Positions 1 to 38,964 of a stretch of DNA of 64,000 nt are shown here, piece after piece. Source of the DNA: Tubulanus polymorphus (Eukaryota > Animalia > Nemertea); contig NC_134029.1 of assembly GCF_964204645.1 (NCBI RefSeq), positions 10,752,850 to 10,816,849 on the forward strand. Reading direction: 5' to 3'. The translations under genes were made by a program, and so were the position numbers. How positions within the stretch are numbered: the stretch's first letter is position 1; every line of letters begins with the position of its first letter. The notes below the pieces were generated by a model. It worked only from the letters and a program-made list of their open reading frames with translations. It was not told the DNA's origin and searched no databases.

Positions 1-1005
1 AAACATAATCTGTTGGGTTATATATTTCAAATAAATCTCTAACTTCTTCAGTCATTTCTTTTTCTGTGTGCCTTAAATTAAAAAATTTGGTTTAGATTTA
101 ATTAATTCAATATTCATATTAAATCCTAATGAATTACATAGTATATTTAGCCCACTTATTGCACATTTTCCATTTGCGCAAATGTTATTACTGGAGAACT
201 CGTAAATTTTTTAGCACCATATGCTGCGTAGAATCCAATGAAGAAGCATTTTCTAAAGATTATATTCTGCATTTAATACATAATCTGGCACTATCTTTTC
301 TTTAGTTGAAGTATTACTTTTAACTATTGCATGAATATAGAATTCGTCATTATATTTTATAGTAAAGTCTTTAGGGTTATTTACAAATATTCTATAAACC
401 GCTGATGATTTCATATCATCCACGATTCTAAATATTTTATGTGAATAAACTTCTTCACAGTATTTTATAATTCTTTCTAATAATTTCAAATCTTGGTTAC
501 ATAAATACCAACTATATTTAGTTCCACTAACAGATTTATACACACCTGCTGAACCATCTCCCATAAAAAATCCTCTGATGAAATATTCTTTTTCTTCTAA
601 TGTTTCGGGTTCTATATTATAAATATTATCAATTATTTCATCAAATGACATATGATTCATTCTTTGGAAAAATCTTTTATGCAATAATTCATCTCCAATT
701 TTTATATCAGTTGGTTTTATTTCATCACCATTTTGTTTAATTAAACTATGGTCTTCAGTAATATCTACAAACCCTAATTTAGTTCTAACTCTATAAATTT
801 TCTTATTTGTTTTATGTCTAATAATAATCTCTAATTTTTTCAATCCATTTCTTGTCCAAACATCCATTAATCCATTTATTTGTATTAATTCTTTTTCACC
901 ATATGAAATATAATGTTCATTTTGTTTTGGAATTATTTTTGAAATTCTTCTAATTAATATTTGGTTATTGTATTTTAATAATATTGGGGTATCAGCTGTT
1001 ACAGA
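1..1005 (-). mobile_element. Intein with LAGLIDADG homing endonuclease inserted at the pPolB YFD|TD (pol-c) site
   Basis: After YFD the ORF reads SVTADTPILLK (block A, Ser1), then ITEDHSL (block B TxxH) and FIRGFFMGDGS (LAGLIDADG 1). After a frameshift near 253 it reads FFIGFYAAYG (LAGLIDADG 2, degenerate) and ...PTDYV at the window edge (start of block F). Sister pPolBs read YFDTDSY. Confidence 0.93.
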
Positions 1006-1834
1006 ATCAAAATATAATATTTCAATATGCTTTTCCCCAAAAAGTGGTTGTAAAACATTATAATAAAAATCATACATTAATAATTTTGATATTTCTAAAA
1101 CAGTTGAACCAATGAATATAGGTTTTTTAAATTTCATTGACGTTCTTTTTAATTTTACCGCGGTTAAATAATCTTCAAATCTTTTATTTCCTAAATGTCT
1201 AGGACTTGATTGTAAATGTCTTAATCGTTCAGAATTATTCAATGTCATTTCTATTTCTAATATTTTCACATGTTTTTCCATAAAAACTATTATTCATTAA
1301 TTTGAAGAAATCTTTTCCAAAATCTGTTTTAGATATGGTTCTCTGTTGAGTATTAAAATCTATATATTTTTCTAACCACTTCGATTGATTAAATTCAATA
1401 TATCTATGTACTTTTATTTAATTTCATTCCTTGTTTTAGATAAAATTCTAACTTTCTATAATGAACAATATAATAGTATTTATAATTTTGCGTAAATATT
1501 AATTTTTCTGTAAAAACATGATCTTTCGGTTTTATTTTCTTCTGGTATTCACTTAAACAACTATCATCTACGGCTAAATGTTCTTGGCAATATGGTAAGT
1601 TTCTTGTTTTAAACTTTATGTTATCAGGATATTCTAAATCAACTACAAAGAAATAACCAATTGGTGCTTCATCTTTTAAACCCATAATTGCACTTTTTTA
1701 ATCAGCTTTATCATCATTTTCAACTTCTGTTTATATAAAATTTTTGTACGGTTTAGGTTGCATCATTGCCCTACCACATAAATTATTGGCGTCAATATAT
1801 AATAATTTATATTCATCATTTGCTTTAAAATGTC

Positions 1835-2674
1835 TGTCGTAGCTCGGTCCCGATTGACCGAGATTGGCCTCTGATCAACCTTAGGGCGGGAGAGCCGACG
1901 AACAAATACCGCACTCCACTCCTCACCTACGTTCCGATTCCGCAGGATGCTGTCGCAACGTTCTTCAAGACCCTTCCCTCGATCCAGTGAACAAAAGGAA
2001 TCCGTGTCCGACCCTGCAGAGCAATCAACACATGGATTGTAATATCATGCCACAGTTTATTTCATCGTACTTCACCCCATATCACTACGAGGACGACTGA
2101 CGATACCTTACAATTATTTACAATCATTCTCAGTATTACACTCATCATTCTAACAAATACCTTTCACAACACATCAAAATCACCCCAATTAATATTACGT
2201 TTTACTCACCCACGATTCATCTAATCTTATCAAGCAACAGAACTAAGTTAATATATAACAAAGGTGACACAGACTTCATACATACAAACCACAAATAATC
2301 AACAGCGCCCTCTGGATAGCGCTCAGCGCGGGAAAATCTATCAGCAATAGCTTCCCCTAAACATGCCATTAAATTACTTCAAACACCCTGACAATCAACA
2401 ATTCGAAGCCCGAGCACATCGTAGCATACTTTAAAATAGATACATGTAGAAGATTAAACTAATTTACCTGCAGAGCAATCAACACATGGATTGTAATATC
2501 ATGCCACAGTTTATTTCATCGTACTTCACCCCATATCACTTCGAGGACGACTGACGATACAGGTCTCCAAGGACGCCAACTCCATTTGGTGGCGCCACTT
2601 GCCAGACCCATGAAATGACTGCGGCACGGAAGTCGGAATTATAAGTCGACTCCGGCAAAGTCCACACTACGACA
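1835..2674. mobile_element. Solo LTR (Gypsy-like), 840 bp
   Basis: Ends TGTCGTAG...CTACGACA; 4-bp TSD TGTC at 1831-1834 and 2675-2678. Removing it restores the pPolB frame GDRHFKANDEYKLLYIDANNL. Internal ~90-bp direct repeat at ~2014-2106 and ~2468-2560. Confidence 0.88.
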
Positions 2675-5416
2675 TGTCTATCTCCCATAACACCACTAAT
2701 TCCACCTCTAATTGATTTTTCAAATAATAAAACCATGTCTGGTTCTTTTACTAAATCTAATTCTACATTTGTATATTTTAAACCACGTTGCCAAGTTAAA
2801 CCAGCACTTGAATAACAATAACAGGGATCAACATTAAAATGATTCAAATATTAACTTCTCTACATTTTCAAATATGTCAGCCAATATCATAACATCTGAT
2901 TTTAAGTATAAATCTACTAAGTCACCATGATTTTTTATCTTAAAGTGATTCCAAATATTTAATGTTCTATTAAAAACTTCATCTTTCACATACTCCTCTT
3001 TTAATTGATCATAAAATTGTTCTTTTAATAATTCTGTTACATTAAAATCATCATGTGTTTTATAAAATGCACCTTTATATCTCAATAATTTAAAATCTTG
3101 TTCATTTGGATAATAATGTTGAGTTATTATTGAATCATTATCAATGAAACTTTTTGCTAAATTATCTAATGAACTTGCTAGAAATCTATAAGAATCTAAA
3201 AATCTAATGCAACCAAATTGAAATGAAATATAATTTTCAGATGTCTTAGCTAATAGTTTAAAATCATATTTTCTTACATTTGCTTCATTCATAGCATTAT
3301 ATTCTTCTATTTCTTGATTAATTGCGGCCAATTTTCCTGATAATCGTTTTATAAATAGATGGGTATCATAGCCTGAAATAATATTGGTACGAAATTAACT
3401 TTCTTAGCTTGTAAATTGCAATCTTCATGTGCAGCTCCACGATATTTTGAATTTAAATGATCATGATCTCTAACTTTTTTATCAAATGAATAAAAACGTT
3501 TTTCACAGTTACAACAATGAGTTGCATAATTAATATCAATTTCATCTTCTTTTGTCATAACTATTCCTTTATTTTTGTTTAATAATTTTGCAAAGTCATT
3601 ATCTATTTCAATTATATTATTACAAAATTCATTTACTATATCTTCACTTCTAAAAGAAATATATTGACTTTCATATAATTCAGGATAATTTGATTTTATA
3701 TAAATTCCATAAGCAGCAGCTCTTTGGTGAACTTTTTTAATTGTATTTATAATTGGTGGGTCTTGAATTATATCTTCATTTAGTTCATTTCCTTTATCCA
3801 TTGGTTTTAAAAATTGCTTTTTGTTATATATTTCTTTTCTATCTTGATCAGTTAATTCTTTATTCATCAATTACAAATGGAACAATATTATTAAATTTAT
3901 GATTAATGAATTTCAACTTACAATCTTTTTGTTGGCATTATTAATTTGCAAAAATCTTTATTACCACATAATTCTTTATGTTTTAGTAACGCATTCTCAG
4001 TCATAAATTTAGATAAACATTTTCTACATAGATAAATTTTACGATGGCGATCACTTTCTGTTGTTCTAAAGAATAAATCTATTTGTTTTAACCACATATA
4101 ATGTTCATTTTCATCTTTTTTGTAATATAACAAATCTATAACATTTTCATCATCATAATATTCTGTTAAATACAAAGCTTCCAATGTATAATCTTTAATA
4201 TTTTCACCTTTTGTCTCTGGTAATTGCATTAATTCGAATACATATATTTTTAAATTATTAACTTTTTCTATTTTAGGTATCATTTTTATAGTTACAGGAT
4301 ATTGATCAATTTTATATAATGTTTTATATTTCCGGTAATCTGTTATTCTAAAAACTATGCGTAATATCTTTTGTTGGGTGTAAACAACTAATAATTGACC
4401 ATAGAAAACATTTATTATCTTCATTTTGAACATTTATTACTGCTTTTGTTGTAAATGGTAATTTAATATAAGATGATGCTTTAATATCCTTTTCTGTTGT
4501 AAAGTTTGAATCATTTTTAAACATTGTTTTACTTTTTGATGCTTTATTCCTTTTTGTATTATAAATATTCAAATCTAAAAACATAATTTCATTCAATGTT
4601 AAACCAGAACCCTCAAAATATCTTTCCTCAATATGACGTTTAAATTCATTAAATATGTTTTCTAATTTCTCTTTTATTTGTGTTTTTGAAATTATTTCTT
4701 CAAAGTGTGTTTGAATATTATAATCCATTTTTTCTTCTGATTTAATAAAACTTACTTTTCCAGAAATACTAATTTTTGGATATTCAACATCTGTTACCAA
4801 ATCTAGTATTTTTTCCATGATTTCAATACATTTACTATAATCTTCTATTGTTGTACCTTTAAAAAATCTAAATATAATAGCTGCGGGACCAATTTTACTA
4901 CGTAATGTTTCTAACATTTCAATTGTATTTTTTAGTGAATCGATATAATTTCTAACATTTTCCATGTAAGGTTTATTTGAAATAGATTTAGTTTTTGAAA
5001 CAGTTTTTTTTACTTGTTGAGGTTTATCATCAAAATAATCTGTTCCTAAAACATTATTACTTAAATTTTTTTTGTGTTTATTGCGATTCGAGATGTCTTT
5101 TATAATTCCTTTTGCTATAAATTCATTAAAAACTTCACATTTTATTTCATCCACATTCATATTTTCTAATCGTTCTTTTCTTTCATTGGAATTTTCTGGA
5201 GTTTCAAAATCTGTAACATTTTTTATATGATTTGCAGTTTTTTCATGACGCGATTTTTGAGATTTATCGATGAATTTTTTACAATATGAACAATAATATT
5301 GATTTTTATTAACATCATTTTTTTCAGTCTGGATCTCTCTATCTCCCATTTTATAAGAAAAAAAAATTACTTGTGGTGATGATGAGTGGGGCGCGGTTAC
5401 TGTCCCCCTGTATATA

Positions 5417-5640: not shown

Positions 5641-5729
5641 TGAGTGGTGTGTCGACCTCTCGACCTCTGGTATGAAACCCCACTTTTACAATTACTTATA
5701 ACACTTTCCTTTATTATTTCATTTTCAGG

Positions 5730-7577
5730 ATCATCTAGTGTTTTGTGCAGGTTGAGAACGCAATTTCAAAAACGGAAGGCCGGCACCAAGAAATCAATGA
5801 CGACAAAAAATGCAGAGAAAGATACACGACGAATAAAACTAGGTTGGAAACACGCCGTCAAAAGCGGGACCTTTGTACTAGTCACTGTAAGCAAGGGTAG
5901 GGTAGGGGGGCACACACTTTGGACCTGAAAAAAGAAATGAATTTGTTTGCCTTAACCATGGAGTTCTTAAACCTATTTTTTCCAGACGGCAAATCGAATG
6001 CGATGAACCTAAAAATCAATGATGTGAGCTATCACCTAGCAAACTTCAATAATAATCGGTTATGTGATTATCTTGAGTGTGGTAATGATTTTGGTCTAGA
6101 GGCCTACATCCCAGCACATAAAACAAACGCTATTAGGCTCTATCTTCACACAACTGTTTTAGTTGACGATAGTGATGATGAAACATCCTTGCCATCCATG
6201 TCATCCTTTCTTGCTAATACCCACCAGCCACCGATTTCTGAGTCAACTTTACCTATGTTTTCGTTGATGCAACCGGCATTGTCGTTTACGCCAGCAGCCT
6301 CATCTACAATTTCGGCTAGAAGTGATATTCAACCTATTGTTTTAACTACGCATACCCAATCTGCCCATACACTTCCAACTCCATTTGCGGCCGGGATTCA
6401 GTCTGGTTATGTGCCTACCGGTGCTGTTGGCATACATACCGGTGCAAATGATACACATTCCCGTGATGGTATAGCAGATATCAACTTTAATGATTTCGAA
6501 TTGATACAGCTTGATACGCTTACAATTCAATTCAGAGTACAGACGAGTGGCGAGTTATCACAAGAAGAGATTAATCGCATTGAACAATACCCCTTCTGGT
6601 TCGCAGAACAGCCATGGTCGATGATATGATAAACGCTTTTTGTGATGCATCGGTGATGGTGAAAATAATAAATGCTCGAATGATACTCCCTAATGGAAAT
6701 GTTGAAGCCGGAGAAGGACACGGTGTCTTTCGAGAGTGTCTCACTGAATTTTGGTCAGAATTTAGAAAGCAATGTATGACGGGTAGTAGTCAGATGATCC
6801 CTCTCATACGCCATGATTATGGCACGGAAAAATGGAAGGCTGTAGGACGCATCATCAGTAAAGGATTTCAGGAAACATCATTCCCAATATTCCTCGCGCA
6901 GCCATTTGTTTCCGAATTGTTCTTCCAGCAGGATGATAGCGTAGACTTGGTCGAATCATTCCTGAAATATGTTTCTCCGTCTGAGGAGCTGATATTTCGA
7001 CGCGCATTGGCTAATTTCGATGATGAAGCAAATGACGTCGATAGAAGAGATAATAGACATACTGGGGGGATATGAATGTCGGAAACTTCCTACGAAGGAG
7101 AACTTCTTTATGTTGATTCGGGAAATTAGTCACCAGGAATTGGTGCAAAAGCCGAGATTTATAGTCGATTGTATAAAACCTATGATACAGAAATATGTAA
7201 CAATATCATATAAACAGTACCTCGATCTTTGTACAGATCTTAAACCCTCCTGTCGCAAAGTGGTAGAATTACTTTCTTTTCCAAACGTTTTGTCAGCTCC
7301 TCAGTCAAATGTTGCTACGTTACTGAAGAGATATGTCAGATCATTGGATGAAAGCATGTTGTCTATGTTCCTCCGCTATTGTACTGGTTCTGACATCTGT
7401 AACTGCCAAAAGATTGACGTGACCTTTACTAAGGTAGACGGTCTCCAACGAGCTCCAGTTTCTCGAACATGTGCCCAGATATTGGAGTTACCAGAAACAT
7501 ATGAAGAATACGTCGAACTGAAACAAGAATTCGATTATATTCTCCAGAGCAATGTTTGGGTTATGGACGTCGCATAA
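5730..7577 (+). pseudogene. HECT-domain E3 ubiquitin ligase (G2E3-like, transposon-borne), frameshifted
   Basis: ORFs 5644-5928, 5919-6629, 6614-7075 and 7020-7577. Motifs EAGEGHGVFRECLTEFW, WKAVGRII, FLRYCTGSD, PVSRTCAQILELP (catalytic Cys) and the C-terminus WVMDVA. Splice acceptor ttttcag at ~5723-5729. Confidence 0.85.
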
Positions 7578-7785
7578 AACTATTCTAGAAACGAAATGAC
7601 GTAATCCACGTAAGTTTCATATGTTCAAAGTTGGATGAAAACGTGTTTAAGTTCTTTTGTTTAGGCCTAAAGTGGTGTGTTTATTTTTAATATTGCCAGC
7701 CCTGATGTCGTTTCTTTTATCATAGAATTACTTAGTGACGATCTTTTTAACGATAGAAGTAATTATTCATGCAGTGCATTTTGAC

Positions 7786-7896
7786 CAGGTTCTACAGTTC
7801 TCGGTTAAGTTTGACTCTAGAGTTAAAGCATTGGAAATATTGAAAATAAACCGACTTAACTCTCGAGTCAAACCTTACCGAGAGCTGTTAAACTTG
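7786..7896. mobile_element. Small fold-back MITE (~110 bp)
   Basis: caggttctacagttctcggttaagtttgactctagagttaa pairs imperfectly with ttaactctcgagtcaaaccttaccgagagctgttaaacttg. Confidence 0.7.
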
Positions 7897-8750
7897 CTCC
7901 TTATATATGTCGTTTCAAATCAGGGCATCAATCATGACCAAGTACGTTTTTGTTTGTATTGAAAACAGGGGGATTTGCGGGCGCCACTTCTCTGCTGTCA
8001 AGTTATGTATATCCAGAAAATAAACATAATGCAAAAAACATATAAAAGTCATCCATACAACGTTTTTCAAATCAATATCTAATCTCTAGATTGCCTTTAG
8101 AAGTTTGGATGGCAATGTTTATGTCTTGAAATTTAGGGATTAGTATCTGAATGTGACTGCCTTGTCAGCAAAAGTTATTTTGACAGCTGAGCTACCACTG
8201 GCGCCATCTATCGAACATTATTGGAAGCTTTTCCCAAATTGAGAATTTTACTGCCAAAGCTGCCATAAATCATTGGACATAACGTTTTTTAGCGTTGCTT
8301 ATTTTGTGACTGAAAATAATGATTAATGAAAAAAATAAACCTCATCAACCTTTGAGGTGACGGTTAACTGATACCTTACTTTCATAGGCCTTAGGAAACG
8401 CATAGTTCATAGTATATATACTATAAATGTAAACAAAAGGTTAATTGGCTTCAAATTGCAGAAAATTTTACTTAATTCCAATGGCTAAAAGATTTATTTT
8501 AAAACAATAATTTCTAAGCGATTTGTTTTAGAACAAAAATATTAAGAAAATTGGAATTTGGTACTTAAATGACATGAAAAACTGATTTGACAATTCATGC
8601 TGATAACAATTAATATACTTATTGTACACTCAAAGCCAAGGTTTATTGAATATTTTTAATATGAATATTTTGATTTCCCTCATTAAAAAGCAACATTTTT
8701 CTTTACAATTGCAAACATCCTAAATTGTGTATTTCCTTATTTCTTTGCAG

Positions 8751-10355
8751 ATGTGAGGATGCTAGAGCATTTGGCAAACAGATCGACATCAAGATTGATA
8801 AGGGAAAATGGTATGAAAAGAAGATGCTTGAACAAAACAAATCAACAAATACGACAATTCAGCCTACACTCATACCGATAACAGGCTGGAGTGAGTTCAA
8901 GCCAGAGTCACTACCTCAATTATTCAATTATGGACACGTTTATTACTGGCTAGTTGAATCTCTCCCGTCATTTTCCAGTGCAGTCGACGATGACAGTGAC
9001 CAGGATGACACATCTTACTCTCCCTTACCAACACAGAAGCAGCTTACCAGGGGTAGACAATATGTGAAATCGGGTTTTGTTAGTGAAGTCTTTGTTAAAG
9101 TTTCAAACGATATTGTGTTTTTGAAGGGGAAAGTCAATGCATCTATGAAAAAAATTCTGTATTCGATAACTGATCTATGTCTAAGATTAGTGGAGCAATT
9201 AAGGATGCAAGTTGCCATTGTAAAGCATCGGCTTTATCTCGCTGTAGCCATGTTGCAGCTTTATTATTATGCCTTAACGACTGTGCTGGAACCCAATCCC
9301 CAGCATGTACTTCGGTACCCTGCCAGTGGAAACAAAAGCACCTGCAAGTATTAATAAAGCTGTATACAGCGACACGCCAAAAAAGAAATAATTAAGTTTG
9401 ACCCCATGAAGATCAAAGGGAAGTGAGCAATACTATGATCAATATATTTTTATCAGATTTGTCTTGGGGAAGTGCCACCTGTATGTGGCAAACTGTTTTG
9501 ATTTACAAATTTGATGACTATCAATTAACGAATGAAAGAAAAGGTATACTTTTAGAGTGGAAAAGCCTCCTAAAATCTAACCTAACTCCACTTGGAGATT
9601 TATCCAGCAAATATGCAGTTATGATTCCGGGCACCGAGGAACAAACATCCTGCGATTATTGGCATTCCCACCGTTATATCAGGATGACTGCATCCCACGC
9701 AAAAGAAACTGTTTTGTTATGGTCTGCTGTTGAAAAGGAACTGTCCACTAGCGTTTTAATCCGTGCCAAAAACTACATGAAGAGAAATTTTTGGGGCATT
9801 GATACTGTGACAACCTATTATATGAAGAGAGGTAATGACCTCGAGGACAGGGCTCGTAGTCTATACTCTGCTATCAACCCAACATATACTGTCACAATGA
9901 CAGGTCTCTGGGTGAACATAGATCTTCCACAGTTAGCCTGTAGTCCATATGGTTTGGTTTATATATCAACCCAAAATGAATATGGTATCTTAGAAATCAA
10001 ATGCCTAAAAATACTTCAGAAGTATTCAGTCTCAGAACTTATCGAAGCCCATAAAATAGAACCCAGTATGATTAGATCTGCTTGTTTTAGGATTTCACAG
10101 AACAAACTTGTATTGAAAAGATCACACCAATATAATTACCAGGTTCAGTTTCAACTGGGCACTACTGGATTTAAGTGGTGCGATTTTGTTTTGTACTCTT
10201 CAAAAGGTGACCCTTCTTTTGAAAGAATATATCCAGACAAGAAATTCATTGCTGATATGTTAACTGCTAATCTGCGATTGTGGGCTGCCATAATTGCTCC
10301 AGAGATTTTTGAAATCCGTGCACCACGAGAACTGAAACCATTCGTCCTAAAATAG
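8751..10355 (+). pseudogene. SWIM zinc finger plus YqaJ/lambda-exonuclease-family protein, frameshifted
   Basis: GRQYVKSGFV, VNASMKK, CHCKASALSRCSHVAALL (SWIM), WHSHRYIRMTAS, MKRGNDLE, LACSPYG (D to Y), LEIKC, YNYQVQFQL, WCDFV. Acceptor ttgcag at 8745-8750. Confidence 0.88.
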
Positions 10356-10493
10356 TAACAATTCATGTATTCAAAGTATATATAATAATTCATATTATGC
10401 ATCGATCATATTCTGTGAATAAAACATATTTTTGATAAGACAAGGTGATTTGTACAGTACTTTATGGAATTTACACAAAAACATTGAGGATTT

Positions 10494-12475
10494 TTAAGTA
10501 GCTAATTGTTCCTGAAAATTAACAAGAAAACAAGAGACAAACACCGCTTGTGTAGCAAGTGGTGTCATATTGAGAGGCATGATACCAGAAATTAATCTAA
10601 ATTTCTTAATACGTTCATTATATCGTTCTACATGTACACGTGCTTTTGCAATTTTCCTAGTTAGAAGTTCTTCCTGGGGAGTGAGTTTTTCCCTTCCACT
10701 TAAAAAGGGGGGTATGTTGAAGCTAACTTGACGTGACATTAGAAGATCTTCTACAATAAATCCTCGATCAGCCAGTATTAAGTCACCAGGTTTAAAATGA
10801 TTCAAAATTCCACACTTCTCAAATATGTCCCGGTCACTGATGGTATCTTCGAACAGATCTGAGACAAAAATTGCTGTACCATTGGGTGCGACGGCTATGA
10901 GGCATTTAAACGTATCATGATGATGTTTATAGTTAGAGAACAGATTGGCCTGTCTTCCAAGATTTCCCGGCATTTGTACGAAAAACTCTGTACAATCAAT
11001 AGAACACCGTACGTCTTAAAATCATTTAAACGATTCTGGCATATATTTCTTCAAAACATTTCTATCTGGGAACATTTTCTCCCTCAAGCCATCAAAATAG
11101 GCTCATCAAAATGGCAATACAACAATTGAAGCCACGTTGAGAAAATGCATCGCAATCCAGTCAAAGATACATTAAAGAAAAGTTTCATAGTAAAAAAACA
11201 GTATCCTCGTCTAAGTCGTACAAGTGTAATAAAAAGTTCATCAAGGGGTTTCGTATTGGCCGGTTTGGTTTTCTTATTCCAGTAAGTAAGATTACTTGTG
11301 CATGGGCCGAGAAACTGGAATAAAGCCAGGAACTGTACGAACGCGAGCCCTGTAAGAAATTTCATCTTAACGTCATCATTTTGAACATTTTCGAGGCTTA
11401 GTAATGAGTTTTCAGTAGTCCCAGATAGACGTGATGCATTGATGGAAGTATTCATCTCATTTCGCAGTATCATAGTTTCTATTTTCGACTAAAGTTCGTA
11501 TTTCTCATAAACAGTCTGTGTTACAGCATCCTGTTTTAATTGGGCGTCTACAGGTAAAACAAGAACTGGTTCCGTTTGTATTCCCACGTCAACCTAGAAA
11601 AAAACCACAAACTTTACTTCAAATACTAAGAAAAATTCATCTGAAAATGCAATTCTCCATCATTAGCAATTAACATGGTCGAAGAAATGTCAATATCTTA
11701 TTCTTACCTTATTTTTTGACTTCGGTAAAGCAGGAACTATTGAAGAATCACCCATTTGAATCATGCTCATATTAAGCAATGCCTCAGCTGCTGAAATCTC
11801 AGAACTGTCATCAAAGACGAGGCGTTTCCGTTTGCAGGGAGTACTCATTGATCGAGGGAAAGGAGCTTTGCGACAGCCACGTTCGAATTTTTCACGCTGA
11901 AAAATTAAACTTTTTACAGATGAGACAACTTCTTAATTTAAAATGTCACAAGATGGCGTAGGATATTGTACAACTACGCCTAGCCGGAACTTCTCGACTT
12001 GGACTGTTGAAACTTTAAGTCGACAGAAATTCCTGCAGAATTATTATTCATACTTTCTTTTTGGTGTAAGTAAGATAAGACATTATCCGTTGAAGACAGA
12101 AGCAACTAGTTCAAAATATCTGTAATAAATTCAAGACACATAAACTAGAAAGAAAGCATGACACTGACAGGCAGTCAAAAGAAAACTTACTTCTTGTGGT
12201 GTCGTTGCTGTTGCAGGAACTGGGTCAGGAAATTTTTCCGTTGGCCCTTTCCCATCAACGAAGTGTTTACTGCATATGAAAGTCATCTTTGTTATCTTGT
12301 TGACATTGAACTGATCGTGGGGTCGGCCACAGCACTTTATCCATCTCGTACACTTTGCTAACTGGGTCTTAGGTTTCGGAAAGTTTTAAAAAAATACACC
12401 TTTCATACCTTCCCTATCAGGGTACCGACTTTCGCTGTTGCAAGTGCCGTAACAGCAGTGCATTTTATAACCCAT
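10494..12475 (-). pseudogene. THAP plus HTH plus DDE (Harbinger/ISL2EU-type) transposase, spliced and decayed
   Basis: Exon 12191-12475 reads MGYKMHCCYGTCNS...FPKPK...RWIKCCGR...FICSKHF...PDPVP (THAP). 11084-11473 has FLTGL...LFITLVRLRRG (HTH). 10494-10973 has FSNYKHH, ILADRGF, IAKARVHVER (DDE). Confidence 0.9.
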
Positions 12476-12647
12476 TATATGAACACGGTGTCTAAAATGA
12501 TCCTTAAACACCGGATAAAAACAACACACTTCAACAAGAACTACGACTGAACCGTAGCAAGTTTGCCTGACTTCCTGGTTTGTGCAATACCCGGATGTGA
12601 CCTTGACTCATTCATTGTTTCTATTAATAGATCTAGTGCGCTGCGCT

Positions 12648-13953
12648 ATTGAGTTAATAGCCAGTCATACAAATCAGCGGCTTCTGGGGTTGATGTCGGT
12701 CTTGATTGTTGTCCCTGCCTCGTTATAAGATCACACATTGCTGAAAAGTCCGGATCACAGCCTCTCGATTCATTCGGCTTACTACAAAATTCCTCTCGAA
12801 TTTGCTGAAGTAGTCCAGAGTCCACTGGAAATTTGTAGTCTATAGTAGAAAATATTATTTCGTATTATCAAGAAGTGATAAAAACATCGTAAACTTAGAA
12901 ACCTATGCTCATTTTATACAGCGTATTTCGTACCGTAATATTCCGGCGAGAAGTATAATAGATCAGGTTTTCCGGGTGGATCATCCGCATTTCGTTGAGG
13001 CCTGATGGCATGTGTATTCCACTCCTGCACGAAATCCTGAAGATCGGCATTTATCAAATCAAAGAAACAGTATCTTAAGGTTTGACTGAAAAATATCTTT
13101 AAATATGTTCATCCAAAACTGAACAACTTCGTTTCGAAGACTTCGCCACCATCGTTCAATGCGCTTAAAACAAAGAAACATAAAACAATTGGTGAGTTTT
13201 GAAATATCTTAAGTTGGTTCTAGCGCAGAAATGGAGATTGTCCAAATCTACCCATATTACTCCACGAACCTGATTACTCGTAGATCTATCCACAAGAACG
13301 CACGTTTCGTCGTCATATTCTGCTCTAAAGGCCTTCTGAATCGCAGCAATTCTGCCATTTTCGGTTCCAGCGTCCATACGGATGCAGCGAGGAACTGCTG
13401 AATGATGATATAAAGATGACGGTCAGAGTATTATCTTAATCGACGATTGATAACGGATAATTTTTCCCAGGCATAATTTCGGCATATTGTGTTTTTATGT
13501 ATGGCTATTCTATCTACCTTCAATGTCCTGAACGAAATCTAAAAAGTACCACGCAACCACCTCTGGGTCATTATTAGTATTTCCAACTCTTAACCAAAAT
13601 CTTTTCAATGTAGACTGTGTTTATGAACATGTTCGACAAACCAAATTCTGAACTTAAAAAGCATCCAAGAAAGCAGTTTTGAATACAGCCAGATTGTAAA
13701 CGACACGTATTTACTATTCCGCTGTTGATATGTGGAAATAATATCTTTTAGGATATATCAATTATATATTATGTTTACCCATCTATACACCCATGAATCG
13801 GGAAACCAAAAGGCTTGAGCTTGTCATAACCATCGAGATGGACAAGATAATTGGGACCCTGGTTAAAGTAACGTCGTTGTCTTAAAACCCCATGGGTCCT
13901 ATTCTGCACTCCTTCGAAGTCTAAATTCTGAAGGATATTGGAAACTAGAGACC
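12648..13953 (-). pseudogene. IS3EU-like DDE integrase/transposase, multi-exon
   Basis: Exons read RRYFNQGPNYLVHLDGYDKLKPFGFPIHGCIDG / WLRVGNTNNDPEVVAWYF / PRCIRMDAGTENG...RSTSNQ / RIERWWRSLR...EWNTHAIR...GKPDLLYF / DYKFPVD...AADLYDWL, with GT-AG introns. N-terminal exons are missing. Confidence 0.85.
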
Positions 13954-14236: not shown

Positions 14237-16612
14237 CGGTTCCTGAACTTCGCTGAAAAAGCTGAAACACTGAAAAGCTGAAACGCTGAAATAAAAACGC
14301 TGAAATTTCAGGGAATTTCCGAAAAACGCCGAAATTTCAGGGAATTCCCGAAAAACGCTGAAATCGTGCTAGGTACCGACAATACACGTTTTGAAATGTT
14401 TTCCGGGCCGGTGTCCGCTGACGAGTCCTGAACCGTGTTTTATGCTCTACCTTCGGTTACAGAGACATGCCTTAAGGTCGTCGTCATGATCGACTTGATC
14501 GATTGCGGATTGCGTGGATTGTTAGATGTGTTTTTTGCCATAGTTTTATGTGCATATACCGGTACGATCTAACAATGAAGTTATCACTTCATTTGAATAA
14601 ATTCTTAATCACAGTAATATTAATTCACAATATTTTTTCTTATGTTTGGTGATTTCTTGCAACTTATCATTGCCAAGTCTCATACAAGTAGTAGCTGAAT
14701 GAAAGTACAGTTAGGCTGAACCTGATAACCCAAATTAAGTGCTAGCATGGAACTAATGATTATTTTGATTCTATTTTCGGTGTCATTGAAATTCGTTAAT
14801 AAAGGTTCAACCGTCATAGTATACTGTACTTAGCATTGCTACAATTGGGTGCCATATTTCTACAATTTCTACAAGGAGGAAGGAATCTTTAAGTGTCTTT
14901 GTTCCCGGGTGGGGTACGGGGTAAAACCTGGTTTACTTTCTCTTTCGACTTGCCGGAGACTACTATCTGCAATGTATTGCATGCTTTGATGTGTCTGGCC
15001 TATAGGAGTCGAACGATATTTTTTTCCCATACACAGGCATGGCTTTAGTGTAGATGAAGGCTAGGCACTGCACATTGTGGATTGACTGGAACTCTAACTC
15101 ACAAAATTAAACGAGTCAACAAGAAAGATCCAATAATTGGACATTTGTCTAACTATATTATTTAACAGCTTGAAATAATACATAACACATTCTGCAAGAG
15201 TATACAAAGGAAATCAGTTCTTACATTATATCAGAATCAATAGTTCGCTTAACTCTGGCTAGAATTCTGGTTCCATTGCTTCATATTCTAATGAAATCCA
15301 CTAGTATACCTTAGAATATCGCTTTGCTTAAGACTAAAAATTTGGTACCAGGAAACAGGGAAGAAAAGTGGGTGTACTGTACATCCGCAATTGACTTATT
15401 TCTCTCCAGTTGAATCAAGTTATTATTGAAATAGCATTCGAATAGCCATTTTATTTTTAAAAATTGTGTCGTTCAGCTATCCTGCTGCAAATTTCGCAGT
15501 TGAAGTTTACTGGTGCCATCTGATTTCTCAGTATCTCAAAAAATTTGCACATTCTAAGCCTGAATCTAAAAATAGAAAAAGGTGCATTTTAGTCGGATAT
15601 AAAAGAATAGTGGCTAATACACCCTGGACTATATAGCCTATGGGGTGGGCCTAGTTTGAAAGCACTGAGGTCCGAGAGAACAGCACTTAGTAAATAAATA
15701 CTGAAATTAAACTTACAAAACACCCAGTACTTGAGATGATGTACTTGACAAGAAGTGTCACCAGCTAAGCAAATCAACTTTGTCTATGACTCCTCCTTTT
15801 ATAGATTCAGTAGTAGTCTAAAAATAAGAATGGGTTCATTTTTCTAACAGTTGGTATGTCATTTCTTCAAAAAAACTAATTATTATCACGCCACAGCAAA
15901 TAAATTATTCACAGTTGTTGAATGGTTAGCCCGATATAGATTAATTGGTTGACGCTAATCAGTATGATCCATACGTAGGGGCCTACTGCATGCCATTGGC
16001 GTCAATCCATTCCATTCCATTCCACAGTGAATTAAAAAGAAATTTAGTTAGATCCCTTTTGTCCAAAAGCTGCATCATTTATATAACTAGCTGTCAAATT
16101 TAATTTACCTCCTTCAGAGAATACCATAGTGACAAAGTCCGTCGCCCATCAACGTGTTGACAAAAGAAAAGTTGCTCCATGTTTTATACATGAACGTTCA
16201 AATAAGATATTTTTCGTCTTGCAGGGAATATTGAGCATAGTGTTTAAGTTGGCTTGCACGGTTTGTGAATGGGTTTTCCTCATTATGCTGCCTGTATGCA
16301 TTAAAAATCCGGATTTCAAGCGAATTAATTTGTCCAACAAGTGGCCCTCTAGAAGTATACTCCACACATACTGTCCATGCGTGTCTCTGTAACCGAAGGT
16401 AGAGACTAAAACACGGTTCAGGACTCGGCAGCGGACACCGGCCCGGAAAATATTTCAAAACGTGTATTGTTGGTACCTAGCACGATTTCAGCGTTTTTCG
16501 GGAATTCCCTGAAATTTCGGCGTTTTTCGGAAATTCCCTGAAATTTCAGCGTTTTTATTTCAGCGTTTCAGCGTTTCAGTGATTCAGCTTTTTCAGCGAA
16601 GTTCAGGAACCG
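14237..16612. mobile_element. Non-autonomous MULE/MuDR-like DNA transposon, copy 1
   Basis: ~220-bp TIRs starting CGGTTCCTGAACTTCGCTGAAAAAGCTG with internal (cgctgaaa) repeats; 9-bp TSD AGGGTAATA at 14228-14236 and 16613-16621; no coding capacity seen. Confidence 0.85.
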
Positions 16613-18132: not shown

Positions 18133-18368
18133 CTTTAGCAATATTCAGTCCATTAACACCTTTAGCTATATCAATTGGTGTGTTTGGATTAAGTCCAAGT
18201 GTTTTAACTGGTATAAGTTCAAAATTAAATATAAAAAGTAATAAAGAAAAAATTAAAACTAATATAAAAGAAATTAATAAATTAAAAAATACATTAGATT
18301 ATATAATAAGTTTAAATGGTAATATAACAGTTGAAGATAAATTATTAAAAGAATTATTAAATTATTAA
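18133..18368 (+). pseudogene. Polinton small membrane/coiled-coil protein, 5'-truncated
   Basis: LAIFSPLTPLAISIG...NIKSNKEK matches ORF 44697-45014. Confidence 0.75.
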
Positions 18369-18384
18369 TTTTTTAATTATATAA

Positions 18385-19684
18385 ATGGGGTTTCCAAAAG
18401 CTTTCCAATATAATAAATCAATTAAATATAATATTCCTGCAATAGATTTTAATGAAAATATTACATATAAAAATTTAGTTTTAAATTCATAAACTAATTT
18501 AGAATTTTATGCTACTGAAACACAGTTTTTTATTTCTAAAATGGAAAATATATTTAATACATATGAAGTTACTTTTACTCGAGATGAATATCATATATAT
18601 AAAGTAAAATCTAATATGAAATATTGGCAGAATCAATTAAATTTTGCTGTTTATTGTGCAACAACTGGTTGTGGTATAAGTTGATGATCATTTAAATAAC
18701 TTAGATAAAAATTTGAATTATTCTGATTTAAAATTAATTCACACAATATTTAGATTTCACACATATTTTCAAATCAGAATAATATTAAATGAATTAGAAT
18801 GTCCTTTACCCGGATCTAAATATTTTAAAGAATTGGATAATAATATTAATCCATCTAAGTTTTATAAAATATGTAATGAATTTAATATAAATATTAATTC
18901 CGATTTTAGAGCGCATGGTAAATTGCAAGGTATTGGTGAACAGTATGAAATAAAAAGAATTGATTATATGCATAGAATTGGAGCTTATCATAATTATAAA
19001 ATTGATAATAATAATGGTTGGATTAATTTTATTTTACTAAATAGTGAAGGTTTTACAAAATCAGGTATACAAAGAATAAATCAATCAATTAGAACTTATT
19101 TGATATGTATTTTAGGTGCGCAAGTTGAAACAAGATCACCAATAGTTGGAAATGATAACACTTCATTTGTTGCGCAGAAACAATTCAAAGTATTAGTTGA
19201 TGATTCCATTCATAATGATAAAAATAGATCGATCCCAGAAAACATAGTTAGGTACCAAAATTATCTAGATAAATCACATATTAGATTAAATTATTGTATA
19301 GGCCTTAATCTATTAATTATTTCTAATGATTTAGTATTAAAAATGGGAAATATAATTGGTTATAATAATTTAATTAAGACTGCAACAATAAATAATTCAT
19401 TTGGATTGAATGATATAAATAAAAAGATAATTACTGCTTCAAAATTAATGGAAGGTGGAAACATTAAAAAACATATTCAATCAACAGAAACTAAAACTTA
19501 GAATATTAAATTAAATAATGATTCTAAAATAAAAGATTATAATACATCAGAAAATGTAAAAACTGATATTATTCAACATGATATAATTAAAACTGATAAT
19601 GATAATAAATCTCATGAAAATACTAAATTAGTTATTACTTGTATAGGAATTGTAATAGGAGGAATATTATATTTTAAATTTTAA
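18385..19684 (+). pseudogene. Polinton conserved ~440-aa protein with C-terminal TM (homolog of 43237-44562)
   Basis: YWQNQLNFAVYCATTGCG, FRFHTYFQIR, RINQSIRTYLICILGAQ; in-frame stops present. Confidence 0.8.
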
Positions 19685-19703
19685 TTAAATTTTTATTATA
19701 TAA

Positions 19704-21418
19704 ATGGATGAAGAAATTCCATTGGATGTCATGGATCCTTTAGATGAACCTGGTATAAGTGATGAACCACAACCTGATTTTAATGAAACTAATATTGATA
19801 ATGATGATTGATCAGCATATAATACTAATTTAGGTGAAGATGATTCTAGTGGGCCTATATTATATGATTATGATGAATTTAAAGATGATACTAAAACATG
19901 TGAAAAATTAATAGATTATTTAAGAACCCGCGATAAGATAATAATTAAAACTAGACCAGAAAGAAAAGAGTTAATTGATAGATTAGAAAAAACAAAAAAC
20001 CCTAAATTGGAATTATTATTATACATAAAACATAGTGTAACAAATACAGTTATTGAAGAATTATTACCAAAAAATATAACATATAACATTGAACCAGAAG
20101 ATATTTCAGAACAAATTAGAAAAGATGATCCACATTTCATGAATAATTTAGAATTTAAAAATGATACATGGTATTATAATGTTGAATTTAAATAACAAAC
20201 TGTATCAATTCAATCATCTAAAATGGGACAAGAAAATATGTACCATCCTGAAATGCGAGCAAGATCTACAATTGAACGTGCAAAAGGTGGTTTAGAATTT
20301 CTCAGAATTATATGGAATGCACTCGATAGAATAAATGAAAAAGAACCAATTCCGAATATTGATATTAACAATTATTCACCATTTAAAAATCCAAATCCAA
20401 ATCCTACTTATGATCCAGAAATGGAAGATTTTGCAGATCGATTAGATAGATTAAGATCTTCAACACCAGAAACATCGAGAAGAGATATTCAACAAATTGA
20501 TTATTATTCAAGTCAATTACAATTAGTATAAGAAAAACAAATTGATAGATTAAGTGATACAGAAGAACAGATGAATAGTATGTTAGATACATCTGGTACT
20601 GAAACTGGAAAAAATCGAATGCAATCTTTACTAGAAAAAGGATTACTTGATTTAACTGATGAAGAATTTAAAAAAATTTCCTGAACAAGCACGTAGAGAA
20701 ATTAAAGGTATGCAAGAATCAGCTGGTGAAATTGCTAATATTAAGATGAGATTTTCTAAAATAACTATGTTAGATAAAGAATTAATTAATGCAAATGAAG
20801 AATTAAAACAATTAGAATTAAATAAAAATCTTCAAGTAATCGAGGAAGCTGATAATGAAAGCAAAAAGTTAGCTTTAGAAAAAGAAATAGATGATTTAAA
20901 ATATAACAAAGAATTACAGGAAAAAGAAAGAGATATATTATTAAAATCATATGATCTTAATCATATTAAAAAATTAAAAGTTATTTTTAAAGATTTAATA
21001 ATAAAACCAGATTCTAAAATATCATCGAAAGACAGAATAAAATTATTATTTAAATTAGAAGGAATAACAATTCTTTCAATTCTAACATCTGTAACTATGG
21101 TATTCACAACAATAGGTTTAGCCATATCAAATTCATTAAAATCTACACCAACTCCTAAAAAACCTGATAAACCTCCATATAATAATTCTATACAAGATAA
21201 AGTTAAGGATGGTTTAAAAAAAATTAGCAAAATATTTATGGGAACTATCTAAAAAATCTGCTGCAGCTTTACCTGGAGTTATTGCATCAATTGTTGGTTT
21301 TGTTTTAAAATCTGCTGGGAATATTCTTAACTTTGCTGCTGAACATATTATTTTATTTTTAATTACAGTTGTAAGTGCTATTATTTTTGGGTTAGTGAAT
21401 ATGATAAAAAATAAATAA
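19704..21418 (+). pseudogene. Polinton acidic/coiled-coil protein with C-terminal TM helices
   Basis: Starts MDEEIPLD and ends with the EGITILSIL...PGVIASIVGF block, as at 41769-43221; stops and frameshifts. Confidence 0.75.
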
Positions 21419-21438
21419 TTAATTTTTTTGTTAAATAA

Positions 21439-22686
21439 ATGAGTGGGAGTTATATAAATCCTTCTAAGAATCCTAGAATATCTAATGCTATTAAAGCAGA
21501 GAGATCTCATCATATAATTACTCATAACCCTTCTAATATTAATCCTGATGAAACTTTATATGTTAGAATCCCGAGATTAAATCAAAATACTTTTTATGTT
21601 CCAAATAGTATTTATTTATTAGCTGATATAAATGTAACTGGTAATAATAATAATTATGTTGTTGATAATGTTGGAAGATATTTGATTAAAAAATTAACTA
21701 TAAAGATTGGTCAAGAAACAGTTTTCTCATTAGATGATTATAATTTATTTATGTATTATAAAGATTTATGGTTAACTAAAGAAAATAGGTATAATATGAT
21801 ATTTCAAGGCATCCAATCAGAAAACCAAAATGAATTAAGATTAGAAGCTAATAATGCAGTAGTAACTAATGACGTAGATAATTTGATCAAACAGATTTAT
21901 GGAAGCAAATATAAAATTCCATTAGACTTTGAATTGATAAATAATAATGCACCTTTATATAAATATGCAATACAAGAAGATATTTTATTCGAAATAACAT
22001 TTGCTCCTGTTAATGAATTTTTAATATCAATTATAATTAAAGATATGGGTTATAAATTATCGAATATATGTTTAGAATATGATACAGTAACTGATGAAAA
22101 TATTTCAAGTATAATTCAAACACAATACAATCAGGGATTTTCATTATTATATGATTATATTGATAAATTTAAAACTGTAACTATTAATGCACATGATGAA
22201 ATTATTAATGAGAATATTAACTTCCCAAGAAGATCTATTAAAGGTATATTAATATTTTTCACAATTGCAACATATTCTAATGGTGCAATAAATGTTGATT
22301 ATTATTATAATCCTGAAATAACAAAAGTAGAAATAACTATCAAAGGAATAGCAAATAAAATATTTTGCCAAGGAATGAGAATGATAGATCAGTGACCAGA
22401 AATTAGACAACATTTTATGAATGAAAAAGTAAAATCATCTGAAAATTGTAATATTAATCAAATTGATTTATTATACCGGTAATAAATATGCACTATGGTT
22501 AGATTTTAGAACAACAGAGGATAATTCATTACATGGTTCTGGGAAAAAACTACAGAACACAAGATGGAATACAATTATTCATGAAAAAGAAAAAAAGGAA
22601 GCTTAAATTTTAAAATGCACATTTACATCATATCTGACGCGCAATTAAATATCATAAATCCTCAATTGAATAGTGTTATGAATTAA
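21439..22686 (+). pseudogene. Polinton major capsid protein (double jelly-roll), 3' part disrupted
   Basis: Highly similar to 40501-41748; TGG to TGA at 22393-22395 followed by frameshifts. Confidence 0.82.
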
Positions 22687-22718
22687 AATTTTAATTTTAA
22701 TAAAAATATTTATAATAA

Positions 22719-23891
22719 ATGGAAGGAGGAATATATGAAATACAAAGTCCAAGTGCAATGATATCAGATATATATTATATAATACCTTATGATGAATATA
22801 GTAAGTATTTTGGAGATTACTTTAATCAATTCAAATATAGAAAAAAGTAAAATAGATAATAATATTGAAACAAAAATAGAAGATAATATTGAACCTAAAA
22901 CAGAAGATAATATTGAATCTAAAATAGAAGATAATATTGATTCTACATCTAATAATAATGAAAATATAGATATTATACCTTCTACATCGAATGATGATAA
23001 GATTGAACCTGATATCAAAACCAAAAAGACAAATGAAGAATATTGTGACTTATGTAAGAAATATATATCATATAAAAATTGGGCATCACATAAGAAATCA
23101 AAGAAACATGTAGAAAAAGTAAAGAATAATAATGATAATAATATATCTGATAGTAATATAATAGATAATTTAATAAATAATGTTAATACAATTGAAACTA
23201 ATGATACCATAGATAATATAACAGATAATGTAATAAATAATGTTAACCCAATTGAAACTAATTATAATGATATAACAGATAATGAAATAATTGATTATTC
23301 TAAAAACATTGTAACATTTGTAATTTAGATATTTCTGAAAGTAATTTTTCTAAACATAAAAAATCTCAGGTGCATATAGAAAATGAAAGGAAATTGGAAG
23401 AAATAGAAAGAAATAAAACGTGTCAATATTGTAATAAGAAAATTGAACCTGTTGATGAAAATACTCATTATAAATCAAAATTACATCTAATTAATGTTTA
23501 TAAAATAGCGAGTATGATACCATTGTTAAATAACCCAAAGAATTATATTAAATATTTTAATCCTAAAACTAACCAATATTCTATATTCTATAAGTTGTTA
23601 TTTGATAAATTATTAGCTTATGCAGAAGATAATCCTGAACAAATATATAAATTATTATATTTTAGAAAAATAGATTTGAGTTATCTAATAAAAAATTTTG
23701 GATATCATTTTGATTTTTATTATGATGATTTTGATGAATACTTTGAAAAATTAAGAAAAGAAGCTAATATACCTACTAATTATTGTTTAAAGATGACTCG
23801 ACTAGAATTAATAAATCTACCTAAGAATTATGGTGAATTAGATATAAACAAAGATGATTTTATAAATGTATTAGAAACAAAATTAGAATAA
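22719..23891 (+). pseudogene. Polinton C2H2 (matrin-like) zinc-finger protein with IETKIEDN repeats
   Basis: YCDLCKKYISYKNWASHKKSKKH and TCQYCNKK...HYKSKLH; frameshifted; homolog at 39324-40468. Confidence 0.75.
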
Positions 23892-23896
23892 TTATT

Positions 23897-24515
23897 ATAA
23901 AACTATTTATATATCTATATACTAGACGTACGTAAGAATCTTGGTAAGAATCCAAGAATCCAAGAAATCTTACTTTCTTACTCGTACGTCTAGTACATAG
24001 ATATATAAATTAGTTTTCATAAAAAAAATTAAAAACATAAATTATTAAAGTATAGAAATAGTTACAATATAATCTATTTTTATTTTTATTAAGAAAAACA
24101 TAATTTATTCATTTTTATATATTTCATTTAATAGTTTATATTTAGAATAATTATTGTAAAACTATTTATATATCTATATACTAGACGTACGTAAGAATCT
24201 TGGTAAGAATCTTGGTAAGAATTCTTACTCGTACATCTAGTACATAGATATATAAACAGTTTCAGAATAATTATTCTAAATATAAATTATATATATATAT
24301 TTGTACCCCTGTGTAAACATAAATTATAAACATAAATTATAAACATAGTTTTAATATATAATTTATTCATTATTATATATTTCATTTAATAATTTATATA
24401 TCTATGTACTAGATGTACGAGTAAGAATCCAAGAATTCTTACTTTCTTACTCTCTTGGCAAGAATCTTGGATTCTTACTCGAACGTCTAGTACATAGATG
24501 TATAAATAGTTTCTA
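23897..24515. repeat. Three imperfect ~120-bp palindromes between convergent Polinton gene blocks
   Basis: Arms tatatctat.tactaga.gtacg / cgtac.tctagtacatagatatata flank gtaagaatc/cttac/ccaag sub-repeats. Confidence 0.85.
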
Positions 24516-24529
24516 TAATATTTCAAATT

Positions 24530-25144
24530 TTATTTTATAAATTTATATTCATAGGGAAATTGTAGTCTCGGAAGTAATTTTGAACCTTTATTATTCTTTA
24601 ATTTATTCATATATTCATCATGTAATTCAGTAGGTATAATTTGATTTTCTTCCAATGATTGTTGCATTGATTTTCTATCTTTATTGTAGAATAAAACTAA
24701 AAATCTTATATTCTCCCTAAAGTCTTTCACAATTGAATTATATTTTTGATTTAAAACCCATGTTGTTATCCCAAAATGTCTCCCAGAGAAAGCTAAATAA
24801 CATAACTCACTTTCTCTATCTTTTGAATCATGTAAATTAGCGCGTAAATCATCTATAATGAATAATGTATTTGAACCTTTATAAATATCAATTGCTATTC
24901 TAATACAATTATCTAAAAATGCTTTTACTGTTTTAGGATCTAATATAATAAACTTTTTTATCTTAACTATATCTCTATTATATGTTTTATTCATGTCATA
25001 AGTAGGACAGAATAATATCATATTATCAAAATGATTCTTATAAATAGTTTCTAACAAGTCTAATATGAAATGTGTTTTACCACAGTTGGTTACCCCAGTA
25101 ACTAAGATATTATGCGGTTCAAATATAAATAAATCTTTATACAT
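24530..25144 (-). CDS. Polinton A32/FtsK-like packaging ATPase
   Basis: Walker A GVTNCGKT, Walker B FIIDD, SGRH motif. Confidence 0.9.
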   Translation of the reverse strand: MYKDLFIFEPHNILVTGVTNCGKTHFILDLLETIYKNHFDNMILFCPTYDMNKTYNRDIVKIKKFIILDPKTVKAFLDNCIRIAIDIYKGSNTLFIIDDLRANLHDSKDRESELCYLAFSGRHFGITTWVLNQKYNSIVKDFRENIRFLVLFYNKDRKSMQQSLEENQIIPTELHDEYMNKLKNNKGSKLLPRLQFPYEYKFIK

Positions 25145-26221: not shown

Positions 26222-26245
26222 CTTATTTTAATCCATCAATAATAA

Positions 26246-26590
26246 TTAAGATTTAGTTTCAGTGATTTTTTCATTTGACTTATTTTCTGGTATAACAGGT
26301 TTATCATCAGAATCATTATTATTAGATTTGAATTTAGATTTATATATTACACCGGAGAATATAATAATTGTGATTAACCCAACTGTAATATATAAGTAAT
26401 TATTTCTTCCACTATAAGAAGAATCAGATGGATTATCATTCGAATCAATATCAGATAATTTCTGTGATTCATTTATATCAGTTAATTTCTTTTTCTTAGC
26501 TTTTTTTAATTCTGCAGATCTTTTACCTAATTCGCTTGCCCATTTAATTTGTTTCTCGGATCTAGTATTTTTCTTAACATCATCACTCAT
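26246..26590 (-). CDS. Polinton small basic protein with one TM helix
   Basis: Homolog of 36871-37239; hydrophobic YLYITVGLITIIIFSGVIY. Confidence 0.7.
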   Translation of the reverse strand: MSDDVKKNTRSEKQIKWASELGKRSAELKKAKKKKLTDINESQKLSDIDSNDNPSDSSYSGRNNYLYITVGLITIIIFSGVIYKSKFKSNNNDSDDKPVIPENKSNEKITETKS

Positions 26591-26594
26591 TTAT

Positions 26595-32344: not shown

Positions 32345-32388
32345 TTTATTATCCAATTTTTTATTAAAAATTTATTTTACATATTTTC

Positions 32389-37239: not shown

Positions 37240-37245
37240 AATAAG

Positions 37246-38941: not shown

Positions 38942-38964
38942 CAATTTATAATTTGGAATATTAT

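Follow-up and report, generated by a model that had tools for sequence, protein, structure and literature searches.

The DNA polymerase of a Polinton integrated in the window, i.e. the whole 64-kb stretch of DNA analysed here, is interrupted within its catalytic motif by what reads as a class-1 homing intein, now decayed, which likely came from a giant-virus polymerase once and long ago; this reading is assigned a probability of about three in four. Comparison at the sequence level confirms the minus strand of window positions 1-1005 as a true LAGLIDADG pol-c intein of the giant-virus PolB family inside a Polinton protein-primed polymerase (pPolB). The intein allele is a known one; the literature covered describes no such intein in a protein-primed Polinton polymerase, a host gene class that appears to be new and that here likely belongs to animal nuclear DNA. 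The intein and its blocks, the latter located by motif reading, are:

1-1005, minus strand: pol-c intein with a LAGLIDADG homing endonuclease, left-truncated by the window edge (from translation and from profile and relative alignment)
985-1005, minus strand: block A, whose Ser1 immediately follows the first Asp of polymerase motif C
748-759, minus strand: block B, TxxH (TEDH)
553-573, minus strand: block C, first LAGLIDADG helix, acidic residue kept (GFFMGDG)
216-236, minus strand: block E, second LAGLIDADG helix, shifted into another frame and without the acidic residue

Six-frame translation places the insertion at 1006/1005 of the minus strand, where motif C of the polymerase of this Polinton (element 1) reads ILYFD and then SVTADTP, with the Ser1 codon at 1005-1003. 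The motifs that the initial annotation had quoted from this polymerase (ILYFD/SVTADTP, TEDH, GFFMGDG, MKSSAVY and DYV) all lie where it had placed them, on the minus strand, with MKSSAVY at 414-394 and DYV at the window edge, and the second LAGLIDADG-like motif lies in another frame. The intein N-terminal model TIGR01445 scores 31.5 bits with the window intein against a cut-off of 24.5, and matches under the gathering score are obtained for PF14890 (Intein_splicing; 1.7e-05) and for LAGLIDADG_3 of Pfam (0.009). The best PDB sequence match is the PI-PkoII intein endonuclease. A likeness to the Mimivirus PolB intein had been proposed in the initial annotation, and alignment bears it out (40% identity of the open frame over 256 columns). 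Since the junction motif was found in 0 of 100 shuffled windows and TIGR01445 scores above its cut-off, a chance match was ruled out as the source of the intein signal. Alignment with an intact relative, P0001, stops at residue 1517 of that protein, whose intein ends at 1537; the window edge falls ~20 codons short of the C-terminal junction, and blocks F and G lie further left. No further intein copy occurs elsewhere in the 64-kb window. A HINT domain of the Hedgehog or BIL type was also considered, and was rejected because endonuclease motifs are present and the polymerase resumes past the insert in relatives.

A search with the window intein returned 145 proteins, of which the best 120 were evaluated. 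The proposed check that the best hits should themselves be inteins came out positively, as the best 120 of 145 are mostly inteins of RNA-primed PolBs (by extein type, 115 RNA-primed PolB, 2 pPolB and 3 unclassified). The top two among them, P0001 (62%) and P0002 (44%), are protein-primed polymerases with the whole intein. The closest relative, P0166, came from a search with the P0001 intein (best 150 of 2058) and is 66% identical to the window intein over 141 columns; past its terminal Asn, its C-extein is 75% identical to the polymerase of a second Polinton in the window (element 3) over 72 residues. P0348 (17 member sequences) and P0370 were obtained with the empty element 3 polymerase as query (best 120 of 640), and L038, a pPolB with intein and two stops, was the sole locus given by a scan of metagenome contigs for patterns of the Polinton intein clade. 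These six (P0001, P0002, P0166, L038, P0348 and P0370) are the Polinton-type relatives with intein, and P0199 is a clade member represented by an intein fragment without extein. A terminal Asn is followed by Thr-Asp in 6/6 relatives that span the C-terminal junction, the closest, P0166, included, and pPolB then resumes, which is the arrangement the initial annotation had expected beyond the window edge. A single open frame runs through both exteins in P0001, P0002, P0348 and P0370; it is broken in the window copy.

The residues flanking the intein at motif C vary among the Polinton inteins (YFD, YGD, YLD, YMD and ASD). The variant motif ASD/TD belongs to a pPolB clade comprising P0348, P0370 and relatives, and because this clade carries the intein, the intein target tolerates loss of the usual Tyr-Gly. 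The intein of intact P0001 was modelled with a mean pLDDT of 73 (7-row alignment), and the model has the HINT and LAGLIDADG fold predicted for the Polinton intein; its best Foldseek matches are archaeal homing inteins (7qsu, E 7e-17, TM 0.67), and PI-SceI is matched as well. This predicted fold is shared with archaeal TliVMA, PhoVMA, PI-PkoII and PI-PfuI and with yeast PI-SceI, whereas identity to these inteins is below 20% and they occupy other sites in other host genes.

Several searches define where such polymerases were met. In IMG/VR, patterns of the Polinton intein clade gave 0 matches, the queries P0348, element 3 polymerase, P0001 and P0002 gave no confirmed locus, and a pattern for the C-terminal junction matched 15 loci, not one of them flanked by pPolB; because these searches gave none, an intact intein-bearing Polinton with its own capsid and integrase was not found. 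The junction pattern had 0 matches in GTDB, where 5 pPolB loci in MAGs all have an empty site. Polinton-type polymerases also stand under bacterial MAG labels (L054-L058, P0370 and P0399), and these are likely misbinned eukaryotic or viral contigs. One protein, P0294, combines the C-terminal part of a pPolB with PF01712, which we take to be deoxynucleoside kinase.

The polymerase that carries the window intein, and the end of its element, are laid out as follows:

1006-5349, minus strand: N-extein, the element 1 protein-primed DNA polymerase, with zinc finger, endonuclease VII-like insert, exonuclease and palm
1835-2674, no strand: 840-bp insertion within the element 1 polymerase gene; ends of the TG...CA type, termini inverted over 8 bp, and 4 bp of target sequence duplicated
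5657-5696, minus strand: element 1 terminus with AGTAAT end, similar to bases 1-40 of the element 3 terminal repeat

The polymerase start codon is likely at 5349. PF03175 is weak on one piece of the element 1 polymerase (E 0.0013) and is above cut-off in P0001, which aligns along all three window polymerases. The 840-bp insertion at 1835-2674 is presumably a solo LTR of a host retrotransposon. It contains an internal 94-bp direct repeat (2013-2106 and 2467-2560) and has no other copy in the window.

Both parts of this gene are damaged. Besides the 840-bp insertion, the N-extein has two stops and ~six changes of frame. A single frameshift had been reported for the intein, and three are present instead, near 257, 172 and 84, all past the first 250 open codons; because one break sits in a six-base run, some frameshifts are possibly sequencing error. 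The acidic residue of block E is absent from the window copy and kept in 6/6 relatives that hold block E; over the seven inteins compared, block C retains its acidic residue in 7/7 and block E in 6/7. Judged from its sequence, the element 1 intein copy is dead, and neither splicing nor homing would be possible from it. The block E loss takes weight from the status of this copy as an active member, and none from the origin of the family. Breaks are about as dense in the intein (3 per 1.0 kb) as in the N-extein (about 8 in 3.5 kb), and GC is likewise similar (0.250 vs 0.251), which fits integration with the intein followed by neutral decay. Most likely, then, the window copy integrated already with its intein and the whole copy decayed afterwards. 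That giant-virus DNA was joined to a dead Polinton by chance, or in a chimera made during assembly, might be suggested by the closeness of the insertion to the window edge and by the break in the six-base run; it is extremely improbable given the codon-exact insertion at motif C, the matching GC and the same architecture in six independent JGI, ENA and NCBI records.

The elements that hold the other two window polymerases are:

33493-51828, no strand: element 3, integrated Polinton of 18,336 bp, with 562-bp TIRs (95.6% alike) and a 6-bp target duplication
18136-32800, no strand: element 2, rearranged Polinton copy with approximate ends, its blocks in both orientations vs element 3
28807-28824, minus strand: empty motif C (YFD/TDS) of the broken element 2 polymerase
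47737-47754, minus strand: empty motif C (YFD/TDS) of the broken element 3 polymerase

Element 3 encodes an integrase-chromodomain protein, an A32 ATPase, a capsid-like gene and the broken pPolB. Capsid matches in element 3 are weak (E about 0.01), and the capsid-like ORF has 0 matches among PDB sequences; element 2 has an ATPase. For element 1, one matching terminus is seen, and its integrase, ATPase and capsid genes would fall outside the window. The window elements are regarded as integrated Polintons because of the TIRs, the 6-bp duplication and the genes of element 3, and because of the similar terminus of element 1. With Polintons, Mavericks and adintoviruses (PMC8502044), element 3 shares pPolB, integrase, packaging ATPase, capsid-like gene, TIRs and 6-bp duplication. 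Within element 3, the integrase is fused to the chromodomain at 37240-38337, and element 2 contains a palindromic repeat region at about 23861-24547.

The surroundings of these elements bear on the host. Adjoining the element 1 terminus, 5900-13400 contains a Harbinger-type element (THAP and DDE_Tnp_4), a YqaJ exonuclease and clustered pieces of HECT, and a microsatellite is also present in the flanks. Such a mix of THAP/Harbinger, YqaJ, HECT and microsatellite sequence is typical of invertebrate genomes. Named relatives of the element 3 polymerase, at 39-47% among the best 120 of 640, come from Mytilus (2), Sycon (4) and a cyanobacterial MAG (1); the source name of P0370 points to a MAG from a clam-associated sample, and the P0370 extein shares a clade with a Mytilus edulis protein. 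Most of the relatives are metagenome records. On the basis of the repeat landscape and these named relatives, the window scaffold likely has an invertebrate host. Intein and Polinton could be real and the host non-animal (protist, fungus or alga) or the scaffold a contaminant; the case would then be a parallel to inteins already known from endogenous viral polymerases of microbial eukaryotes. Both Polinton PolB classes occur in non-animal eukaryotes too (PMC8502044), and the YqaJ look-alikes say just Eukaryota (97%), with Arthropoda commonest; a search for YqaJ homologues gave 3 matches, all without a taxon. This rival is nevertheless unlikely in view of the flanking sequence, with its Harbinger-type element (THAP domain), YqaJ, pieces of HECT and a microsatellite, of named polymerase relatives that are, among the matches listed and apart from one cyanobacterial MAG, from Mytilus and Sycon, with P0370 clam-associated, and of the integration that the TIR, the 6-bp duplication and the nested LTR-like insert show. 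Other repeats in the window are a MITE-like repeat in two copies (14237-16612 and 52371-54622), with ~230-bp inverted ends containing 29-bp subrepeats, and a 760-bp direct duplication (61329-62088 and 63243-64000, 99.7% identical) around an 88-bp tandem array, which is either a recent duplication or assembly redundancy. Rfam gave 0 matches in the window, and 0 tRNA genes were found.

The polymerases of elements 2 and 3 had been said to read YFD/TDSY, and they were found to do so at 28824-28807 and 47754-47737. They had also been presented as empty alleles forming a substrate for homing, and this is not supported. The two elements are 83-90% identical to one another and either is 70-74% identical to element 1, so the sisters represent another subfamily in other, likewise broken elements, and the window copy itself has three frameshifts and a degraded block E. 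Because this copy is dead and its sisters are diverged and broken, the window is a record of a past state, not a live homing substrate. The upstream half-site of element 1 matches the empty sisters at 17/18 and 18/18 bases, the downstream half lying outside the window. Elements 1 and 3 are 92% alike over the last 60 bases before the site, against 57-85% further upstream, and share two residues near the site that nearer outside relatives lack; identical codons beside the site stand at 16/19 vs 17/28 (raw counts). Elements 2 and 3 are 88% alike near the site, where the motif is conserved regardless, and co-conversion beside the insertion site is at most hinted at.

Among the best 120 of 640 pPolB matches, 3 carry the intein and 117 are empty, a count of full copies that is biased low because split matches score lower. 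In an extein tree of 66 of 126 rows, from which P0002 was excluded as unalignable, 4 changes are required to account for the 6 rows with an intein, and 4 of 500 shuffles are as low, which indicates clustering; monophyly of the six intein-bearing exteins is rejected (p-AU 4e-06). The nearest extein neighbours of these rows are empty, at 74-88% identity, and a supported extein group unites element 1 with P0166 and with P0292, which is empty. Within the window polymerase class, intein and extein divergence run in parallel (61% vs 62% for P0001-P0166, 76% vs 84-87% for P0348-P0370), and an old acquisition is therefore indicated. P0002 stands apart, with exteins that have no BLASTP match to the other intein-bearing pPolBs and a strong PF03175 score, and it is probably of the Alpha polymerase class of PMC8502044. 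Because its intein is related all the same (39-46% identical), it represents one jump between polymerase classes. The comparison of intein and extein trees proposed at the outset thus returned agreement within the class and the P0002 jump between classes, but not monophyly of the intein-bearing exteins.

Alternatively, after one ancient gain the intein could have been passed on only vertically and lost precisely many times over, homing among Polintons having ceased. Vertical descent with loss fits the window polymerase class without proven homing, because intein and extein trees agree as far as they are resolved and divergences are parallel, and change counts cannot separate gain from loss. 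As an account of the whole family it is rather improbable, since an unalignable P0002 extein with a 39-46% identical intein demands at least one lateral move, endonuclease motifs kept across inteins ~40-60% alike are hard to explain without homing (PMC5056185), and 117 empty sites in the best 120 of 640 pPolBs would require many exact losses. The preferred reading, in which the intein was acquired long ago, kept by homing and often lost, is likely.

The donor was approached with two trees. For the first, 181 of 265 candidate inteins passed a junction filter that took out 84, three of which were restored by hand; with one over-long sequence removed and seven added, it has 187 rows. The second is an IQ-TREE analysis of a 50-row subsample. 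The intein tree was rooted on three topoisomerase-type inteins or at the midpoint. All eight Polinton-side inteins form one clade (support 100 with 187 rows and 100/100 with 50 rows), and in both trees this clade nests within giant-virus-type inteins of RNA-primed PolBs. A grouping of the Polinton clade with the Mimivirus pair is rejected (p-AU 0.003), and the 50-row tree gives the clade no supported giant-virus sister group. The P0002 intein is not forced inside the other seven by the data (p-AU 0.42) and may branch beside them, so that either polymerase class may have acquired its intein first. An unusual C-terminal block of the G-F-P-L-I type is common to the Polinton inteins and 13 giant-virus-type inteins. 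In IMG/VR, the loci that carry inteins of the RNA-primed PolB type belong mostly to giant-virus MAGs, with Mimivirus-like PolB flanks in 44/52 and pPolB in 0/52. Members of the intein family are also present, at two sites, in proteins like type II topoisomerases (P0067, P0219, P0270, P0276 and P0281, one clade). Pfam supports that identity in P0067 only; P0219, P0270, P0276 and P0281 are labelled topoisomerase-like on our reading of their flanking motifs.

Taken together, the comparisons suggest a giant-virus origin of the Polinton inteins. The initial annotation had proposed that a giant-virus-type intein moved into a Polinton PolB; the position of the clade inside giant-virus inteins upholds this, but neither a Mimivirus donor (AU p 0.003) nor a genome-specific event is upheld, and the transfer into Polintons looks old and not particular to this genome. 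A recent transfer from the Mimivirus lineage was likewise rejected. The direction could also be reversed, or a third source involved, with Polintons having given the intein to a giant-virus group. The 13 giant-virus-type inteins with the same G-F-P-L-I type block would agree with this, as would the missing sister group of the Polinton clade. It is very improbable, however, because the Polinton clade is small (8 rows) and, under either rooting, is nested among RNA-primed PolB inteins whose radiation is far larger, and because the allele is also present in archaeal PolB (PMC549080).

For a giant-virus origin, the following course can be proposed. In class-1 inteins, splicing is driven by Ser1, the block B Thr and His, the terminal Asn and Thr+1 (PMC7765530; PMC549080). 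The precursor of an intact Polinton is predicted to splice by Ser1, the block B His, the terminal Asn and Thr+1, rejoining YxD/TD, and intact Polintons would need this splicing to restore the catalytic motif of their polymerase. The two-motif LAGLIDADG domain is predicted to cut the empty motif C of near relatives, upon which repair would copy the intein across. Such an endonuclease requires the acidic residues of blocks C and E, and their retention in 7/7 and 6/7 inteins is as expected under selection for homing (PMC5056185). The first jump likely went through the motif C common to both PolB classes, in a cell that held a giant virus and a replicating Polinton; such a meeting in animals is plausible because Polinton-like viruses are associated with entomopoxviruses (PMC11296320). 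Homing among close Polinton relatives, frequent precise loss and at least one jump between polymerase classes would have followed.

Known systems resemble the window intein in part. The pol-c inteins of Mimivirus and other giant viruses have the same YxD/TD site, Ser1, TxxH, two LAGLIDADG motifs, Asn and Thr+1 (PMC549080), whereas the extein here belongs to a protein-primed polymerase of a Polinton, for which BLAST detects no match to the Mimivirus-type exteins used as the sorting class, and Mimivirus is not sister. In Klebsormidium, Tetrabaena and Honda, nuclear scaffolds carry viral-like DNA polymerases with inteins, so that there too an intein reached a nuclear genome inside an endogenous viral polymerase (PMC10710043). 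Those carriers are in algae and a labyrinthulomycete, whereas the window intein is carried by a Polinton, which integrates itself, and the host is likely an animal; in the available text of PMC10710043, Polinton and metazoa occur 0 times. Polinton pPolBs with inserted HNH and VSR nucleases also have a nuclease domain inside the polymerase (10.1101/2023.08.22.554363; PMC11071308), and PMC11071308 speculates that such inserts derive from intein invasions. The insert of the window type differs in combining a splicing domain with a LAGLIDADG endonuclease within the catalytic motif, no splicing domain being reported for the HNH and VSR inserts in the available parts of these sources. The available text of the nematode Polinton paper (10.1101/2023.08.22.554363) gives 0 hits for intein, HINT or LAGLIDADG, and that of PMC8502044 contains 0 occurrences of "intein". 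Across the full-text literature covered, as far as the available texts extend, no splicing intein is reported in a Polinton, Maverick or adintovirus polymerase. The expectation of novelty thus stands for Polintons, but not for inteins in endogenous viral polymerases in general, and because the latter are known from algae and a protist (PMC10710043), novelty is confined to "Polinton, protein-primed, likely animal".

A broader reading, which we hold to be somewhat favoured, is that of a Polinton-specific intein lineage derived from giant viruses, still splicing and homing in invertebrate Polintons, jumping between polymerase classes and present in the germ line. These would be the first animal nuclear inteins, and a fossil record of Polintons replicating beside giant viruses. 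According to a survey of eukaryotic inteins, metazoan genomes have none, and the only viral inteins in its lists are those of giant-virus families and of viruses without classification (PMC5784728, available text); Polinton-borne inteins would be a back-door exception to that absence. If this is true, functional Polintons rely on protein splicing in animal cells. The series YGD, YFD, YLD, YMD and ASD would offer a natural set of target sites for change in homing endonuclease specificity, and the window-type insert would supply a concrete case for the speculation in PMC11071308 on intein-derived nuclease inserts. Because homing requires donor and target DNA together, in one cell, the Polinton intein clade may mark past encounters of giant viruses with Polintons, and such a marker would bear on the question of a parasitic life of animal Polintons on large DNA viruses.
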